DNA of 9,602 nt from a virus. Its lineage: Duplodnaviria; Heunggongvirae; Uroviricota; Caudoviricetes. The DNA is taken from IMG/VR virus record IMGVR_UViG_2695420708_000010. One strand, 5' to 3'. The position numbers were made by a program, and so were the translations under genes. The notes under the pieces were generated by a model that saw only the letters and a program-made list of their open reading frames with translations, was not told the origin of the DNA and made no database searches. Shown piece by piece: positions 2,752 to 9,191 of this stretch. Every line of letters begins with the position of its first letter. The stretch's first letter is position 1.

Positions 2752-2869
2752 GTCTTTTCCTTTTCCGGTTAACGTGACACACCAATAACTCTTGTCGAAA
2801 AAGCCAGCAAGCTGAAAGACAGGTATTCACCGCCACCAGCGCGTTTACTGTACTGACGCGATTTCAGTC

Positions 2870-2896
2870 ATAAAAAACCCGCTCGGCGGCGGGTTG
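2870..2896 (-). terminator. tR'-like terminator, second copy (identical to 5209..5235)
   Basis: Minus-strand RNA A-CCCGC-CGCCGA-GCGGG-UUUUUUAU; lies inside the 2870..3394 repeat block. Confidence 0.7.
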
Positions 2897-2942
2897 TAGA
2901 AACTCTTCTAACGTCAGGCATAAAACGCCCATAGTTATGACG

Positions 2943-2970
2943 AATTTACCACAGATTCCGGAAAAATCAA
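2943..2970 (-). promoter_or_regulatory. PR'-like late promoter, second copy (identical to 5282..5309)
   Basis: Same sequence as the promoter downstream of the intact Q gene, offset 2339 bp. Confidence 0.4.
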
Positions 2971-2975
2971 CCTTG

Positions 2976-3394
2976 TTACCTAGTTACCTTTTTTAACTGC
3001 CGCTCAGCCCATGCTTCTTCAATATCAAACCGGGTCACCAGCGCATCATAAAATTTCTTAACTGTTTTTTCCCATGACGCGCGTGTTATCTGGTTTGTCA
3101 CCTCGCATATAGCATTAAATGCCTCCGTTGATGGTAGTCTTTCATAGCCACGACCACCACAACGCTGGCAGTCTCTGATAACAGGCATACCACGTTTTAC
3201 CGACTCTTCACGATGAATGGCGACACCACGCCCACGGCAATCCTTACAGGCGGTGGAAACCTCACCCTTTCCGCCACACTCCGGACAGGCAACTTTTACC
3301 ACCTCCCTGACTTTTTTCCATTCTTCCCAGTAAGACGGATACACACCTTTCGTACACTTTGCCCATACCGGCGGCTTACCATCCGGATACTGGA
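2976..3394 (-). pseudogene. 3' fragment of a Q-like antiterminator gene (C-terminal ~139 codons with the CxxCxGxG zinc-finger repeats), fused at 3394/3396 to the AT-rich module
   Basis: 2870..3394 matches 5209..5733; the intact gene's N-terminal ~134 codons are missing. The 191-aa track ORF 2976..3551 takes its first 52 codons from AT-rich module DNA with a GTG start and no SD. Confidence 0.8.
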
Positions 3395-3604
3395 AAGTGT
3401 TTAAATGCCATGGTTCTTTCCACCATCTGAAAAATAATTCTTTAAAATACCTGACATGTAATACAGAAAAAACACAAAACCATACCTTAAATAAAAACCT
3501 GATTATCAAGCAGATATGCATGGATAAACTACAAGACGAGATATAAACCACCCTGCATTTAAATAAACAATAAACAACATCAGAAAAATAATTCTGCTCT
3601 ATGG

Positions 3605-3631
3605 TTTACATTCAAAAATATCATTTATACT
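3605..3631 (+). promoter_or_regulatory. Candidate sigma70 promoter for ORF 3672..4007 (copy of 361..387)
   Basis: Identical sequence to copy A. Confidence 0.4.
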
Positions 3632-3671
3632 TTTCAGAACATCACCAGCAAGGCATAAACAAGGAAACTAA

Positions 3672-4007
3672 ATGAAGTGGATTGTGATTGATACAGTTAT
3701 CCAGCCATCATGCGGAATATCTTTTTCAGTCATATGGAGTAAAATAAAATTAATAATCTGGTATCAATCGGATGCTTTCTTACCTCCTGAAAGTATATTT
3801 ACACTGACTCACACAGGCATCATGCTCAATAACAAAGTGCTACCTGTAACCATTTACAACGTAGTACCATTCAATAAAACATTCTGGAATTCAATCAAAA
3901 ATAGCCAGGAATGCCCTACAAATACAGATAACGTATTGAATGAATGCTTTAATAACCGTTGCACTCTGCAAATATGTCCTTATGGACTAAAACAACAAAG
4001 TCCATAA
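3672..4007 (+). CDS. Hypothetical 111-aa protein, second copy identical to 428..763
   Basis: ORF track; identical translation; same RBS and promoter. Confidence 0.45.
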
Positions 4008-4041
4008 GGAGTTTACTCACATCTGACAAAATCAATATAAA

Positions 4042-4063
4042 CAGCCCCTCCGGAGAGGGGCTG
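4042..4063. terminator. 9-bp stem hairpin, copy of 798..819
   Basis: Identical sequence to copy A. Confidence 0.5.
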
Positions 4064-4287
4064 GAGAGTGGCGCTATGTGCCATTGCATGGTGCCGGGTG
4101 CCTCCCGGTGAATTCAGTACCAGCACCTGAATCCGCGATTATCCCATATACCTACTCGCTGATTGCCCCTCCGCACAGGGGGATTCACCATGCCAGTTTC
4201 TTTTAACAAACTCCCCGCAAACCAGACAACAGTCAACCGCCTGAATTGTGAAGTATTTAAAAATTTCTCCCGCTAACTGATACCCGG

Positions 4288-4374
4288 CTAACAGTCTGGC
4301 GTTTTCTTTTTCAGCAACGGGAAAGCAACAACCACCACACCCGCCACCAGCACACCGTCAGCCAGCACTGACAT
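4288..4374 (-). CDS. Candidate 28-aa hydrophobic peptide (MSVLADGVLVAGVVVVAFPLLKKKTPDC), single predicted TM segment then a basic tail
   Basis: Own translation; ATG at 4374..4372, stop TAG at 4290..4288; only a weak GGA SD; below the ORF-track size cutoff. Confidence 0.25.
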   Translation of the reverse strand: MSVLADGVLVAGVVVVAFPLLKKKTPDC

Positions 4375-4454
4375 TATCCGGCTGCTGCAATGCCATTCAC
4401 AAAAACAGTAAGCAATCACTTTTTACCGTAACAGGTGATAATCCAGATATGTAT

Positions 4455-4781
4455 CTACCCCAGATGAGTAATCCGAAGTTCATCCATACCACAGGTCCTG
4501 GCTATTCTGTTGTACTCCTGAACAAGAGCAAATAATTCTGAATTAGCAACCATGAACTCATCGCAAACCCTCTGTATAGCATCACTATTCAGAATAATAA
4601 CGTCTCTTCCCGAAAGACGATCAGGAGTACAGAACAAAACTGTCAAACGGCTGAAGGCCTTTGCTCGTGCTGCATTGACTATATCAATACGCTGCCTAAG
4701 GATGAAACACCCCGACGCCTCATCAATATTCACTCTACCCACACCATATGAATGATAAATATTTAATGCTGAAAAAACCAT
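4455..4781 (-). CDS. Hypothetical ~108-aa protein (117 aa from the TTG at 4808); no family recognised
   Basis: ORF track 4455..4808 begins at TTG; first ATG is at 4781..4779; no convincing SD for either start; sits directly downstream of the tRNA cluster on the late strand. Confidence 0.3.
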   Translation of the reverse strand: MVFSALNIYHSYGVGRVNIDEASGCFILRQRIDIVNAARAKAFSRLTVLFCTPDRLSGRDVIILNSDAIQRVCDEFMVANSELFALVQEYNRIARTCGMDELRITHLG

Positions 4782-5171: not shown

Positions 5172-5208
5172 GGGAGCAGAATAATAACGGTCCGTAATTA
5201 ATTCCGCA

Positions 5209-5235
5209 ATAAAAAACCCGCTCGGCGGCGGGTTG
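5209..5235 (-). terminator. tR'-like rho-independent terminator between the Q-like gene and the tRNA cluster
   Basis: Minus-strand RNA A-CCCGC-CGCCGA-GCGGG followed by UUUUUU; about 80 nt downstream of the Q stop. Confidence 0.7.
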
Positions 5236-5281
5236 TAGAAACTCTTCTAACGTCAGGCATAAAACGCCCATAGTTATGACG

Positions 5282-5309
5282 AATTTACCACAGATTCCGG
5301 AAAAATCAA
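5282..5309 (-). promoter_or_regulatory. PR'-like late promoter (-35 TTGATT, 16-bp spacer, extended -10 TGgTAAATT); would give a ~65-nt transcript ending at tR'
   Basis: Hexamers at 5309..5304 and 5287..5282 on the minus strand, immediately after the Q stop codon (5315..5317). Confidence 0.4.
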
Positions 5310-5314
5310 CCTTG

Positions 5315-6136
5315 TTACCTAGTTACCTTTTTTAACTGCCGCTCAGCCCATGCTTCTTCAATATCAAACCGGGTCACCAGCGCATCATAAAATTTCTTAA
5401 CTGTTTTTTCCCATGACGCGCGTGTTATCTGGTTTGTCACCTCGCATATAGCATTAAATGCCTCCGTTGATGGTAGTCTTTCATAGCCACGACCACCACA
5501 ACGCTGGCAGTCTCTGATAACAGGCATACCACGTTTTACCGACTCTTCACGATGAATGGCGACACCACGCCCACGGCAATCCTTACAGGCGGTGGAAACC
5601 TCACCCTTTCCGCCACACTCCGGACAGGCAACTTTTACCACCTCCCTGACTTTTTTCCATTCTTCCCAGTAAGACGGATACACACCTTTCGTACACTTTG
5701 CCCATACCGGCGGCTTACCATCCGGATACTGGATCTTGTTTGTAAAAACCTCGCTTTCAATAAATTTTTTTCCGTGACAGCAGGGGCACTGTTTTTTGCT
5801 CGCCGCGCTACGGGCATAATCTTCAAACGCATACGAAGCCATAATACGCATCACTGCCGGTTTTATTTCTGCCGGGAGTTTTCTTAACGCCGCCACGCGA
5901 TCACACCGACTGAGTGCATATTCTGTCAGCAATTCTGTTGCCCGCTCTCTGTCATTCATACTAATGCCCATTTTCCCAAGGAACGCAGAAACCCCCATCT
6001 CAGCCCGATTCTGTGTCATGCCCTGCGCGGCCATCACATCAGTGATACTCAGCGCATCTTTCGACGTTGAGGCCGATGCATCAGTCAGGCCGGGGGATTT
6101 TGGGGAGTAGTATTTCGGTAAATCTTCCAGTTTCAT
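5315..6136 (-). CDS. Antitermination protein Q-like, 273 aa, with DnaJ-type CxxCxGxG zinc-finger repeats
   Basis: ORF track; position between rusA and PR'/tR'/tRNAs is the canonical lambdoid Q position; ATG overlaps the rusA stop (ATGA); motifs CPCCHGKK, CPECGGKG, CKDCRGRG, CQRCGGRG. Family assignment rests on synteny and motifs, not a search. Confidence 0.75.
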   Translation of the reverse strand: MKLEDLPKYYSPKSPGLTDASASTSKDALSITDVMAAQGMTQNRAEMGVSAFLGKMGISMNDRERATELLTEYALSRCDRVAALRKLPAEIKPAVMRIMASYAFEDYARSAASKKQCPCCHGKKFIESEVFTNKIQYPDGKPPVWAKCTKGVYPSYWEEWKKVREVVKVACPECGGKGEVSTACKDCRGRGVAIHREESVKRGMPVIRDCQRCGGRGYERLPSTEAFNAICEVTNQITRASWEKTVKKFYDALVTRFDIEEAWAERQLKKVTR

Positions 6137-8179: not shown

Positions 8180-8300
8180 CAACAGAATCCTTCCAGATAA
8201 ATAGCACTCCCCTGTTCGGGGTCCATCCCTCTTCTCCCTGCGCGCTACTTAAGTATTTTTGATTCTATTCCGGCACCATCTAAAACTTCAAACGCGTTGA

Positions 8301-8329
8301 AAATAAAAACAAAAACCCGCCGAAGCGGG
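8301..8329 (-). terminator. Rho-independent terminator downstream of hok (UUCG tetraloop hairpin plus U tract)
   Basis: Minus-strand RNA CCCGC-UUCG-GCGGG followed by UUUUUGUUUUUAUUU. Confidence 0.7.
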
Positions 8330-8399
8330 TTAAGTGTGGGTGCATTGAGGATGCCTGACCCATCAGAGGTGGCGAGGGATTTCTCCCCCGCCTGGTCTC

Positions 8400-8555
8400 T
8401 TACTCCTCAGGTTCGTAAGCTGTGAAGACAGCGACCTCCGTCTGGCCGGTTCGAATTCGTACCTCGCAGAGGTCTTTCCTCGTTACCAGTGCCGTCACTA
8501 TGACGGTTAAACAGATGACGATCAGGGCGATTAACATCGCCTTTTGCTGCTTCAT
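8400..8555 (-). CDS. hokD: Hok/Gef-family type I toxin, 51 aa (HokD/RelF-like)
   Basis: MKQQKAMLIALIVICLTVIVTALVTRKDLCEVRIRTGQTEVAVFTAYEPEE is a classic Hok sequence and matches HokD as I recall it; ATG at 8555..8553 with AGGAG 9 nt upstream. The track ORF 8400..8612 is an in-frame 19-codon upstream extension. Confidence 0.88.
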   Translation of the reverse strand: MKQQKAMLIALIVICLTVIVTALVTRKDLCEVRIRTGQTEVAVFTAYEPEE

Positions 8556-8766
8556 AGCCTGCTTCTCCTTGCCTTTCGGCACGTAAGAGGCTAACCTAGA
8601 TTTGCCGTTCATAGATTGAGCCTCAGATTAATGTTAAGCGTCTTGCCGGACGCGTAATGTTAACTGGGGCTTTTCTCTATCTGCCTTTTGGTGTTCATGC
8701 CTGAGACAGATAGCCTCAAGCACCCGCTGCAATTCTACTTAACTCTCCTTTTCCCGCAAACCGTTT

Positions 8767-8850
8767 TTATCCCCAGCGGCAAATCGAATACACCACCAGC
8801 GCCACCGCCATCGCAATTCCTACCGTTGTTAATGCTTCAGGCCAGGTCAT
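8767..8850 (-). CDS. Candidate 27-aa hydrophobic peptide ([27 protein letters not shown])
   Basis: Own translation; ATG at 8850..8848 overlaps the stop of the upstream 114-aa gene (ATGA); GGAGGA about 9 nt upstream; below the ORF-track size cutoff. Confidence 0.35.
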
Positions 8851-9191
8851 CGTAAAATATCCTCCACGCTTATCAGTCCGTTCCGCTCCAGATAACTCAT
8901 CGCCTTATCCGGTAATTTGCAGTCTGGCTTCGCTTTTCTCAGTTGCCAGGTTAACTGCTTTACCAGCATGGTTAACTCATCGACCAGACGCTGATATCCC
9001 ACTGGTTTGTATTCATGCAATTTACCGGCTGGCTCTGCTGCCAGCGATACCAGTGCGATTTCCAGAACAGCAATATCCATCTTATATGTGCGGATGATGT
9101 CATGGTCGATTGTGCCCGGTATGCACAGTCTCTGTGCTTCAATAGTCTCCTCTGCGTGAGCTATTAACTGCTCTCTGGTAAAAGTCGTCAT
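8847..9191 (-). CDS. Hypothetical 114-aa protein
   Basis: ORF track; start overlaps the stop of the upstream 55-aa ORF (ATGA); N-terminal half resembles that ORF. Confidence 0.55.

Follow-up and report, generated by a model that had tools for sequence, protein, structure and literature searches.

How is a Hok toxin restrained when relBE does not accompany it and its antisense RNA gene escapes notice? The question arises from a hokD-like gene in a 9,602-nucleotide sequence of a tailed phage (Caudoviricetes), the whole of which is called the window here. A sequence-only reading had assigned the gene, its in-frame extension and a small hydrophobic open reading frame to the minus strand, and all features were found where it had placed them. 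Sequence identity, element positions, folds and conservation were determined in this analysis; RNA expression, processing and toxicity are taken from the literature. Judged by these comparisons, the segment 8305-8760 (minus strand) very probably holds the whole of a type I toxin-antitoxin module, a hok/mok/sok of the hokD/hokW lineage carried by a Qin-like lambdoid prophage, and a 27-codon open reading frame beside it would be a separate conserved gene. The coordinates are collected in Table 1.

Table 1. Features of the hok/mok/sok module and of the open reading frames preceding it (window positions).
Feature	Position	Strand	Basis
Intrinsic terminator of hok mRNA: 7-bp stem AACCCGCTTCGGCGGGTT and T run	8305..8331	minus	terminator scan
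fbi (fold-back inhibitory element) CCUCAAUGCACCC, predicted to pair with 5' tac	8338..8350	minus	MFE fold
hok (hokD) toxin CDS, 51 aa and stop	8400..8555	minus	ORF list, HOK_GEF match, HokD identity
mok, 70 codons: hok extended in frame by 19 codons	8400..8612	minus	MokW likeness, PHROG 251
hok mRNA 5' leader	8550..8725	minus	Rfam RF01794
sok promoter: -35 TTGCCT 8569-8574, 17-nt spacer, -10 TAACCT 8592-8597	8569..8597	plus	identical to 933W/Sp5 block
Sok-target hairpin with mok ATG (predicted); hypervariable island in otherwise near-identical hokD/hokW loci	8598..8627	minus	variant comparison
Sok antisense RNA (predicted), about 71 nt; single-stranded 5' tail followed by a long hairpin and a U-rich end	8604..8674	plus	transferred from 933W sokW misc_RNA
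mok Shine-Dalgarno sequence GAGG, 8 nt upstream of mok ATG	8621..8624	minus	read from sequence
tac element GGGUGCUUGAGGC	8725-8713	minus	within hok mRNA 5' leader
hok promoter (putative): -35 TTTGCG 8760-8755, -10 TAGAAT 8737-8732, +1 about 8725	8732..8760	minus	read from sequence
27-codon ORF, predicted single-pass membrane microprotein	8767..8850	minus	conservation, hydrophobic core
Coupling signals of the 27-codon ORF: GGAGGA 8865-8860, ATGA stop/start overlap 8850-8847	8847..8865	minus	sequence
114-aa gene (PHROG 660), hypothetical protein	8847..9191	minus	stop overlaps start of 27-codon ORF

The hok gene and its neighborhood

The toxin is a member of the Hok/Gef family, with about 50 residues, an N-terminal transmembrane helix and the conserved cysteine. 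It matches Pfam HOK_GEF (PF01848) with 81.6 bits (cut-off 22), and all 51 of its 51 residues (100%) are identical to HokD of a K-12 derivative, in agreement with the earlier naming of the toxin as HokD. Loci identical to this hok are labeled hokD by PGAP (WP_000813254.1). HokD is toxic on expression (bioRxiv 10.1101/2025.08.07.668861). In work by Pedersen and Gerdes, cited in that preprint, the tested chromosomal hok loci gave no post-segregational killing.

The gene order in the prophage is upstream early genes, hokD, rem, ydfU, rusA and Q, and DUF968, RusA and Antiterm Q domains were found by Pfam among the window genes. The downstream side is therefore of the Qin type (rem, ydfU/DUF968, Q antiterminator). 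Upstream of hok, the open reading frames gave zero Pfam or NCBIfam matches and no match to RelB or RelE. Strains 300709 and 131 have the 114-aa frame at 8847-9191 annotated as WP_000206826.1, a hypothetical protein. The whole 8305-8745 module is present in 4952 of 5426 complete E. coli genomes, and the terminator forms the low-coordinate end of the module that these genomes have in common. The recurrence of the module and of the 27-codon frame is more than chance. Nothing in the window sequence conflicts with a hok/sok assignment.

Relation to relBE-hokD of K-12

In the Qin prophage of K-12, hokD (relF) is the last gene of relB-relE-hokD. The two loci have in common the identical HokD protein, the downstream neighbors rem and ydfU (the window Rem and YdfU are 71% and 78% identical, respectively) and a 3' untranslated region with fbi and terminator. 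Upstream, the homology extends 14 nt beyond the hok ATG and ends there, at the point where relE abuts hokD in K-12. Thus relE and relB stand in place of tac, leader, mok start and sok promoter, whereas the window has all four and no relB and relE immediately upstream of hokD. The absence of relBE beside hok, already observed in the sequence-only reading, is confirmed by the unmatched upstream frames and by the alignment break before relE.

The same reading had drawn attention to a hokD without relBE. Loss of toxin-antitoxin components through rearrangement has been described for K-12 hokD (PMC12214031; PMC7232551), and the homology break together with the former report marks K-12 as the rearranged copy. 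The K-12 relBE-hokD operon is a derived rearrangement from which tac, mok and sok were removed, and the window holds the intact ancestral arrangement. Absence of relBE is the ancestral state and no anomaly. The intact form of hokD without relBE is already known and is carried by thousands of E. coli genomes. The apparent anomaly is thereby corrected to a normal intact locus with textbook control by Sok, mok and mRNA folding. Identification of this control removes the question of an unrestrained toxin.

Leader, mok and hok promoter

The 5' leader matches Rfam RF01794 over its full length (model positions 1-157 of 157) with 112.4 bits (gathering score 59), and alignment revealed leader blocks conserved with the R1-type IncFII hok/sok locus. 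The mok frame starts with the ATG at 8612, 154 nt from the stop codon of the 27-codon frame, and encodes 70 aa. It overlaps hok, has its own Shine-Dalgarno sequence and begins about 19 codons upstream of hok, in the in-frame variant of this arrangement. The annotated MokW of phage 933W is 89% identical to the window mok, and PHROG 251, "MokW-like host killing", matches it with 7.7e-33. An in-frame 19-codon extension of hok and a leader of about 150 nt had been noticed before; both are present, but the extension had not been recognized as mok, which 933W annotates identically as mokW.

The hexamers of the hok promoter are assigned by reading the sequence and are putative. The promoter block is identical to that of 933W/Sp5, a single A/T difference being located downstream of the -10 hexamer. 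In Sp5 lysogens, hokW mRNA has been detected (PMC8621323).

The sok gene

In the alignment, the -35, spacer and -10 of the sok promoter equal base for base those of sokW in Sp5/933W. The -35 and -10 also align positionally with R1-type IncFII hok/sok. Replacement of the exactly matching -10 by primer YO-421 gave a promoter-less sokW mutant, and HokW toxicity was released; the sokW RNA of Sp5 was detected by Northern blot with probe YO-592, which maps onto the Sok region of the window (PMC8621323). The predicted fold of 8604-8678 comprises a 9-nt tail and a hairpin (-31.4 kcal/mol, z = -5.2). The window thus contains a cis-encoded sok with its promoter in the mok-hok junction, and the predicted RNA covers the mok start.

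A generic sigma-70 consensus scan of 8550-8700 reported no antisense promoter, and the hok promoter went unreported as well. Each of the two promoters has one hexamer with only 3 of 6 matches, which explains why they were missed, and the silence of the scan therefore says nothing against them. In the sequence-only reading, no convincing Sok-like promoter had been placed and the restraint of the toxin was called unclear, which implied an orphan hok, unregulated by Sok and restrained otherwise. The silent scan and the K-12 copy of the same protein, which does lack sok, are in line with such an orphan. It is nevertheless hardly credible in view of a sok -35, spacer and -10 identical to an experimentally validated promoter, a full-length RF01794 match, a predicted Sok fold with the typical tail and hairpin, the alignment of the locus with R1-type hok/sok, and the presence of mok, tac, fbi and the mok Shine-Dalgarno sequence. 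The earlier statement was an oversight of the validated sokW promoter and the full-length family match. Alignment with hok/sok/mok loci, proposed in the same reading, yielded the canonical sok/mok arrangement that it had named as evidence against itself.

Comparison with hokW-mokW-sokW and R1

The hokW-mokW-sokW loci of the Stx2 phages 933W and Sp5 (VT2-Sakai) have a nucleotide identity of about 92% over window positions 8328-8850. They share with the window the 70-codon in-frame mok and the 51-aa Hok (89% identical over Mok), identical sok and hok promoter blocks and a 27-codon frame directly upstream. Experiments have shown the hokW-sokW pair of Sp5 to be a type I toxin-antitoxin system with a requirement for RNase III and Hfq (PMC8621323). 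Differences concern the C-terminus of Hok (TAYEPEE in the window, VDYESEK in 933W/Sp5), the first five mok codons, the target of the Sok 5' tail (MNGKS and MLNTC, respectively), and the genomic position. The window module is located between early genes and rem-ydfU-rusA-Q, whereas that of 933W adjoins L0139-L0141 near the tail-fiber end of the deposited record.

The hok/mok/sok locus of plasmid R1 (parB) agrees with the window in order and spacing of tac, ucb, mok Shine-Dalgarno sequence, mok ATG, sok -10 and -35, hok Shine-Dalgarno sequence and ATG, and the fold-back 3' end. The R1 mok comprises 70 aa and starts 19 codons upstream of hok, with a GAGG Shine-Dalgarno sequence at the same 8-nt spacing (PMC9841398). 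Sequence conservation with the window is confined to functional blocks, and the published Hok identity is 44% (PMC8621323). By the positions given in PMC9841398, mok and hok of R1 are in different frames, while the window mok is in frame with hok. R1 parB is a plasmid-stabilization locus, the window locus that of a prophage.

Folding of the hok mRNA and proposed mechanism

In the minimum free energy fold of the 420-nt transcript, the 5' GGGUGCUUGAGG is closed with fbi (-169.2 kcal/mol, z = -6.8). The predicted long-range tac/fbi pairing connects 8725-8714 with 8350-8338, which corresponds to the closure of a full-length hok mRNA. In the full-length fold, the partner of the mok Shine-Dalgarno sequence GAGG is GCCCCAG (ucb); in a local hairpin, predicted for 10 of 11 variants, it is AGCCU (dcb). 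When a hok mRNA truncated at its 3' end was folded, the mok Shine-Dalgarno sequence stayed paired with ucb and the prediction did not reproduce the published tac/ucb refolding, a process that a thermodynamic prediction cannot settle.

The steps of the mechanism are taken from the R1 and Sp5 paradigms. A weak promoter would yield a hok mRNA of about 420 nt. The full-length mRNA would be translationally inert because tac pairs with fbi and the mok Shine-Dalgarno sequence is sequestered. Slow trimming at the 3' end would open the mRNA, and translation of mok, here the in-frame 19-codon extension, would then drive translation of hok. The unstable Sok, transcribed from the promoter inside the mok-hok junction, would pair with the mok start hairpin, thus blocking mok and hence hok, and the duplex would be degraded. 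Hok would be made only once the supply of Sok stops, by loss of the element or by prophage induction. Release of Hok on prophage induction has been shown for hokW-sokW in Sp5 (PMC8621323).

Within the transcript of hokD/hokW loci, variation is highest in the Sok-target hairpin. Mok codons 1-5 occur in 13 variants, and diversity per 15-nt block is 0.17-0.26 in the island versus mostly 0.00-0.06 in the neighboring transcript blocks. Predicted folds keep a hairpin with the AUG in its stem in 10 of 11 variants. As a smaller possibility, the hypervariable first mok codons (8598-8627) may be a specificity determinant, which would allow many hok/sok copies to share a genome and not repress one another. 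Up to a dozen copies of the module are tolerated by E. coli strains, which a variable Sok target could explain.

Sequence and conservation of the 27-codon open reading frame

The 27-aa hydrophobic frame, the GGAGGA Shine-Dalgarno sequence and the ATGA overlap described in the sequence-only reading are all present at 8767-8865, the ATG (8850-8848) overlapping the TGA (8849-8847) of the 114-aa frame. The small frame was found in 1636 of 5426 complete E. coli genomes (~30%) and in 91 phage records. A set of copies from viral contigs was seeded on codons 3-7 and contains 49 unique nucleotide sequences; 115 of the 129 copies are intact as 27 codons, so that the conservation in related prophages, on which the earlier claim depended, held. 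Codons 3-7, the seed, are nearly invariant including synonymous sites, as are the first 20 nt. Behind upstream genes that are unrelated, the junction has the ATGA overlap in 97 of 133 copies, and in a further 27 the ATG adjoins the stop codon. Across lambdoid, P1-like and rV5-like phages, the frame follows at least four upstream genes unrelated to one another, with hydrophobic core and ATGA overlap retained.

The pN/pS of the small frame is 0.43, and the antisense frame, which shares wobble positions, scores equal (0.41). This ratio cannot distinguish sense from antisense frame, and start, stop and indel behavior together with a simulation of hydrophobicity were therefore relied on. The hydrophobic core and R25-W26 are kept in six diverged lineages (P 0.001-0.04 each, against random expectation in the simulation). 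Only in-frame indel variants were seen, and homology blocks in foreign contexts end exactly at the start and stop codons.

Searches of Pfam and NCBIfam assigned no family to the small frame. A KdpF match was at chance level (E = 0.12), and PHROG 4612 was matched weakly (E = 0.011). Folding of the region gave no unusual RNA structure (z = +0.7 to +1.5), and the promoter and terminator scan reported none around the frame. RefSeq/PGAP annotation is absent in every locus examined. Full text and supplements of small-ORF papers, searched also for peptide strings, gave no ribosome-profiling, proteomic or literature support for the 27-aa peptide, and no literature on its toxicity was found.

The conservation pattern makes it fairly likely that the frame is a real gene for a membrane microprotein (M-x-WPEAF-x2-VG-x9-YSICRWG), stop/start-coupled to a preceding "ea-region" gene (DUF551, Eaa, 933W L0139-like or PHROG 660). 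Its product is probably an uncharacterized single-pass inner-membrane microprotein; translation and membrane location are predicted from the sequence. The peptide would consist of a short acidic N-terminus, a helix of about 17 residues and a C-terminal R-W. Termination-reinitiation at the end of whichever early-region gene stands in front would bring about its translation.

Alternatively, the frame may be untranslated and open by chance or composition, in which case what is conserved would be an element at the nucleotide level, for instance a homologous "linker" in the exchange of lambdoid modules. The almost invariant first 20 nt with their synonymous sites would suit such an element, as would the location at mosaic junctions, the antisense frame that is open in 49 of 49 variants at equal pN/pS, and the missing PGAP calls and expression data. 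A length that stays at 27 codons although as many as 29 of 81 nucleotides differ is less easily reconciled with it, and so are the exclusively in-frame indels, the uncharged hydrophobic core with R-W in six diverged lineages, and start and stop codons that bound the homology block. Further, codon 2 varies except for the A at +4, whereby the upstream TGA is preserved; a Shine-Dalgarno sequence stands at the right distance within unrelated upstream genes; and an RNA structure signal is missing. A nucleotide-level element is thus unlikely, though it retains appreciable weight beside the preferred microprotein.

Relation of the 27-codon frame to hok

A link between the small frame and hok had been implied in the sequence-only reading. 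With contig-edge copies left out, a hok signature lies downstream of 41 of 116 copies, and 75 have none. Contexts lacking hok include positions before DUF4222-xis-int or parDE, P1-like plasmids and the rV5-like phage Av-05. About two thirds of the copies are without hok downstream, which places the frame outside the toxin system; by this distribution it appears as a gene independent of hok/sok.

A role within the hok system, as a second toxin, a co-toxin or a leader peptide tuning the hok promoter, is accordingly very improbable. It would be compatible with the small size and hydrophobicity typical of type I toxins, with the end of the frame 7-13 nt upstream of the hok -35 region, and with its travel alongside hok in 933W/Sp5 and many other prophages. 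Moreover, the published pBAD18-hokW-sokW clone starts exactly at the small-ORF ATGA (primer YO-432, PMC8621323), so that a contribution of the frame was never separated from hok. Opposed to this are the 75 copies lacking a hok signature, the DUF4222-xis-int, parDE or P1-like genes that follow instead, and the many hokD loci that match the module only to 8744 or 8773 and have no small frame, with which the implied link falls. In addition, the frame lacks a separate promoter, a long leader and an antisense hairpin, and it is coupled to the gene before it. Its unwitting inclusion in the hokW-sokW expression clone calls for an experimental separation from Hok effects.

DinQ, ShoB, Ibs, TisB, KdpF and AcrZ are small single-pass membrane proteins or type I toxins of E. 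coli. The 27-aa peptide resembles them in size, in its one hydrophobic helix and in a basic-aromatic C-terminal flank. It differs by the coupling to an upstream phage gene and lacks the own promoter, structured 5' untranslated region and antisense sRNA of a type I small-ORF toxin. Widespread and conserved, yet overlooked in standard annotation, this membrane-peptide frame is a candidate for a phage microprotein.

A degenerate pattern scan with one genome per species gave 15 matches, of which 10 lay in unrelated taxa and were due to chance. Two others, on tiny contigs under the names Xanthomonas and Acinetobacter, were identical to coliphage variants and probably represent contamination. A fusion or frameshift with DUF551 was considered, as the peptide clustered with DUF551 proteins of 121-185 aa. 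The sequences have no common segment, however, and the clustering is therefore an artefact. With the 45-aa in-frame translation as homology query, matches were obtained only in Escherichia, Shigella and Salmonella, under the names "hypothetical", "bacteriophage protein" and a mislabeled "DUF551 partial".

Hok, mok and sok

By alignment with characterized loci, the hok part of the window is a canonical and complete hok/mok/sok module (Table), and the locus represents already known biology. The Hok protein yields 81.6 bits against Pfam HOK_GEF and is identical in 51 of 51 residues to HokD of a K-12 derivative, in agreement with the toxin named in the sequence-only reading. The missing adjacent relBE was confirmed, as a domain search of the ORFs upstream of hok revealed neither a RelB nor a RelE homologue. 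The in-frame extension of hok by 19 codons is present as described; judged by its sequence, it is mok. Plasmid R1 mok likewise comprises 70 aa and starts 19 codons before hok (PMC9841398). A UACG motif is present at the C-terminal tyrosine codon of hok (codon 47, TAC, and the following G; 8414-8417, minus strand).

Features of the hok/mok/sok module and of the ORFs upstream
Feature	Position	Strand	Remark
hok	8400-8555	-	51 aa and stop
mok	ATG at 8612	-	70-aa ORF, in frame with hok, 19 codons upstream
27-codon ORF	8767-8850	-	
GGAGGA	8865-8860	-	Shine-Dalgarno sequence of the 27-codon ORF
114-aa ORF	8847-9191	-	TGA overlaps ATG of the 27-codon ORF as ATGA
hok promoter	-35 about 8760-8755; -10 8737-8732; +1 about 8725	-	-10 TAGAAT
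SDmok (GAGG)	8624-8621	-	paired with GCCCCAG in the fold of the 420-nt transcript
fbi (CCUCAAUGCACCC)	8350-8338	-	from the fold of the 420-nt transcript
hok mRNA terminator	8331-8314	-	terminator scan
Sok antisense RNA	about 8604-8674	+	coordinates transferred from 933W sokW
sok promoter	-35 8569-8574; -10 8592-8597	+	TTGCCT, 17-nt spacer, TAACCT

The sequence-only reading had placed no convincing Sok-like antisense promoter and considered the restraint of the toxin unclear. This was not sustained: alignment revealed complete sok, mok, leader and promoter in the canonical arrangement, which had been overlooked. The hok leader (8725-8550, minus strand) matches RF01794 (Rfam name 'sok') end to end with 112.4 bits, the gathering score being 59. 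The Stx2 phage 933W is about 92% identical to the window across 8328-8850. Its curated features comprise hokW, the sokW antisense RNA and mokW, a 213-nt ORF. As mokW shares its stop codon with hokW, it is the same in-frame extension as in the window. The entire sok promoter block shows no differences between the window and 933W or Sp5 (VT2-Sakai). In Sp5, sokW RNA has been detected by Northern blot, and a promoter-less sokW mutant lost the protection against HokW (PMC8621323). The mutagenic primer YO-421 of that study places the mutated hexamer exactly on the TAACCT of the window's sok promoter.

In the predicted fold of Sok (z = -5.2), a single-stranded tail of 9 nt is followed by a single long hairpin and a U-rich end. 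For the hok transcript of 420 nt (8725-8306), pairing of the 5′ GGGUGCUUGAGG with the 3′ CCUCAAUGCACCC was predicted (overall z-score -6.8). By analogy to R1 and Sp5, the hok mRNA would be made as an inert folded RNA, hok translation would depend on mok translation, and the Sok antisense RNA would cover the mok start, leading to duplex decay. For transcription, 3′ processing, RNase III cleavage and toxicity the basis is published work on R1 and Sp5, while the window itself contributes sequence and folds.

Comparison with R1 and K-12

An R1-type IncFII hok/sok locus shares with the window an ordered series of blocks: the 5′ element tac, ucb (GCCCCAG), SDmok, the mok ATG, the sok -10 and -35 hexamers, and the Shine-Dalgarno sequence and ATG of hok. 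In K-12, the homology runs from the 3′ flank to a breakpoint 14 nt ahead of the hok ATG. Past it follow relE and relB, neither of which the window contains, and K-12 thus has no tac, leader, mok start or sok promoter. According to Pedersen and Gerdes (1999; cited in PMC12214031 and PMC7232551), K-12 hokD lost its activity when a rearrangement deleted TA components, and PMC7232551 reports intact hokD loci for other E. coli. The aligned breakpoint agrees with this view. The neighborhood of the window is Qin-like, with Rem (71%) and YdfU (78%), then RusA and the Q antiterminator. Of 5426 complete E. coli genomes, 4952 contain parts of the hokD module, with as many as 12 sites in a genome.

In a set of 31 unique hokD/hokW-type loci, the most variable transcript stretch (8598-8627, minus strand) covers mok codons 1-5 with their flank and is targeted by the 5′ tail of Sok. 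Diversity per 15-nt block reaches 0.17-0.26 there, versus mostly 0.00-0.06 in the neighboring transcript blocks. At least 13 variants of the five codons occur in otherwise near-identical loci; the window encodes MNGKS, a rare variant, and 933W MLNTC. A hairpin with the mok AUG in its stem is kept in 10 of 11 variants. Since variation at the mok start is automatically mirrored in Sok, the recognition specificity would change. The hypervariable island may be a specificity determinant limiting cross-talk among co-resident copies.

The 27-codon ORF

The small hydrophobic ORF upstream of hok is, by its distribution, a conserved ORF outside the hok/sok module. All positive details of the sequence-only reading, including GGAGGA and the ATGA overlap, were found in the sequence, and the frame is kept in relatives, with 27 codons in 115 of 129 viral-contig copies. 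The ORF stops at 8767, followed by the hok promoter. The ORF and hok meet at a mosaic junction and do not form a functional unit. No hok signature lies downstream in 75 of the 116 viral-contig copies located away from a contig edge. Copies without hok precede a DUF4222 gene, xis and int (one in VT1-Sakai) or a parDE pair in the slot occupied by hok in the window, and occur on a P1-like plasmid and in the rV5-like phage Av-05. Conversely, in many hokD loci the shared module ends at window position 8744 or 8773, and the ORF is absent. In many records the homology block is bounded exactly by the ORF's own stop and start codons (query positions 13-96).

The ORF sequence was found in 1636 of 5426 E. 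coli genomes and, by tblastn, in 91 phage records. A stringent pattern scan of a single genome per species yielded genuine copies from Escherichia and Shigella only. Two further copies, on short contigs of Xanthomonas pisi (L136, 431 bp) and Acinetobacter idrijaensis (L142, 369 bp), are identical to coliphage variants and are probably contamination of these assemblies. The large Escherichia phage Av-05 (L010, Vequintavirinae) carries a diverged, unannotated copy (1201-1284) with 18 nucleotide differences from the window, 12 of them synonymous, likewise ATGA-coupled to an unrelated upstream gene.

The upstream genes belong to at least four unrelated classes: DUF551 (protein ending ...PLPEPPQEVNQ), PHROG 660 (the window's gene), 933W L0139-like and Eaa. 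Of 133 junctions, 97 are ATGA overlaps and a further 27 have the ATG next to the stop codon; the Shine-Dalgarno sequence lies within the upstream coding sequence. In 12 viral-contig loci the ORF overlaps a directly following small hydrophobic ORF (...MSDDISLAMEGALAVIAVVGVYCLVVFLMDRLGN), which suggests tandem small membrane-peptide genes.

Where indels occur, the frame is preserved: the variants are forms of 24 and 25 codons, one with an AMAMAM expansion and one with 15 codons duplicated. The pN/pS ratio is 0.43 in the sense frame versus 0.88-1.77 in four other frames, and equal (0.41) in the antisense frame that shares the wobble positions. Six lineages differ from the window in 11-23 of 60 nucleotides over codons 8-27; all six keep the uncharged hydrophobic core and R25-W26, an outcome with a probability of 0.001-0.04 per lineage under simulated random substitution. 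No unusual RNA structure was found across the region (z = +0.7 to +1.5). Codons 3-7 are almost invariant, in a viral-contig set seeded on these codons; phage POCJ13 has TAG for TGG at codon 3.

PGAP annotated the ORF in none of the loci examined, and submitter calls are sporadic ('hypothetical protein', 'bacteriophage protein', mislabeled 'DUF551, partial'). No Pfam or NCBIfam family matched, PHROG 4612 matched weakly, and searches for literature or ribosome-profiling support retrieved none. The product is probably a small single-pass inner-membrane peptide, made by termination-reinitiation after translation of the early-region gene before it. According to the positive-inside rule, its N-terminus would face out and its C-terminus in. 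The ORF is an uncharacterized microprotein candidate, not an extraordinary one.

The insert of pBAD18-hokW-sokW (primer YO-432; PMC8621323) begins exactly at the ATGA of the ORF (GAATCAATGACCTGGCCTGAAGC; window 8842-8856). The construct that defined hokW-sokW thus contains the whole ORF, whose possible share in the hokW-sokW phenotypes is not separated in the published clone. The upstream early genes, hok and the downstream Q gene run in one direction, so antiterminated early transcription after induction would cross hok in sense, against the sok promoter. Such read-through could be one reason why Sp5, as reported, loses sokW RNA in a RecA-dependent manner and HokW appears (PMC8621323).

The slot between the ORF and the ydfU-side genes holds relBE and a truncated hokD in K-12. 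In a related prophage of E. coli TD225-C4 (L007, 815-1377), a type II TA pair, parDE, stands on the opposite strand in place of hok/sok (cf. window 8190-8760). Exchange of addiction modules seems to be concentrated at this slot.

Repeats in the window

Large direct repeats of 91-100% identity connect 104-1344 with 3348-4588 and 2863-3551 with 5202-5890. Part of the region downstream of Q seems to have been duplicated in tandem, and the end of the full Q antiterminator gene (5315-6136) recurs as a 3′ fragment (2976-3551). An IraM-like 111-aa ORF occurs in two identical copies (428-763, 3672-4007), and the STnc100 sRNA was matched twice (789-978, 4033-4222). Two tRNA clusters are present (Arg-tct, Arg-tcg, Met-cat; then Arg-tct, Met-cat), and a DNA methyltransferase gene (1345-2403) lies between the repeat copies.
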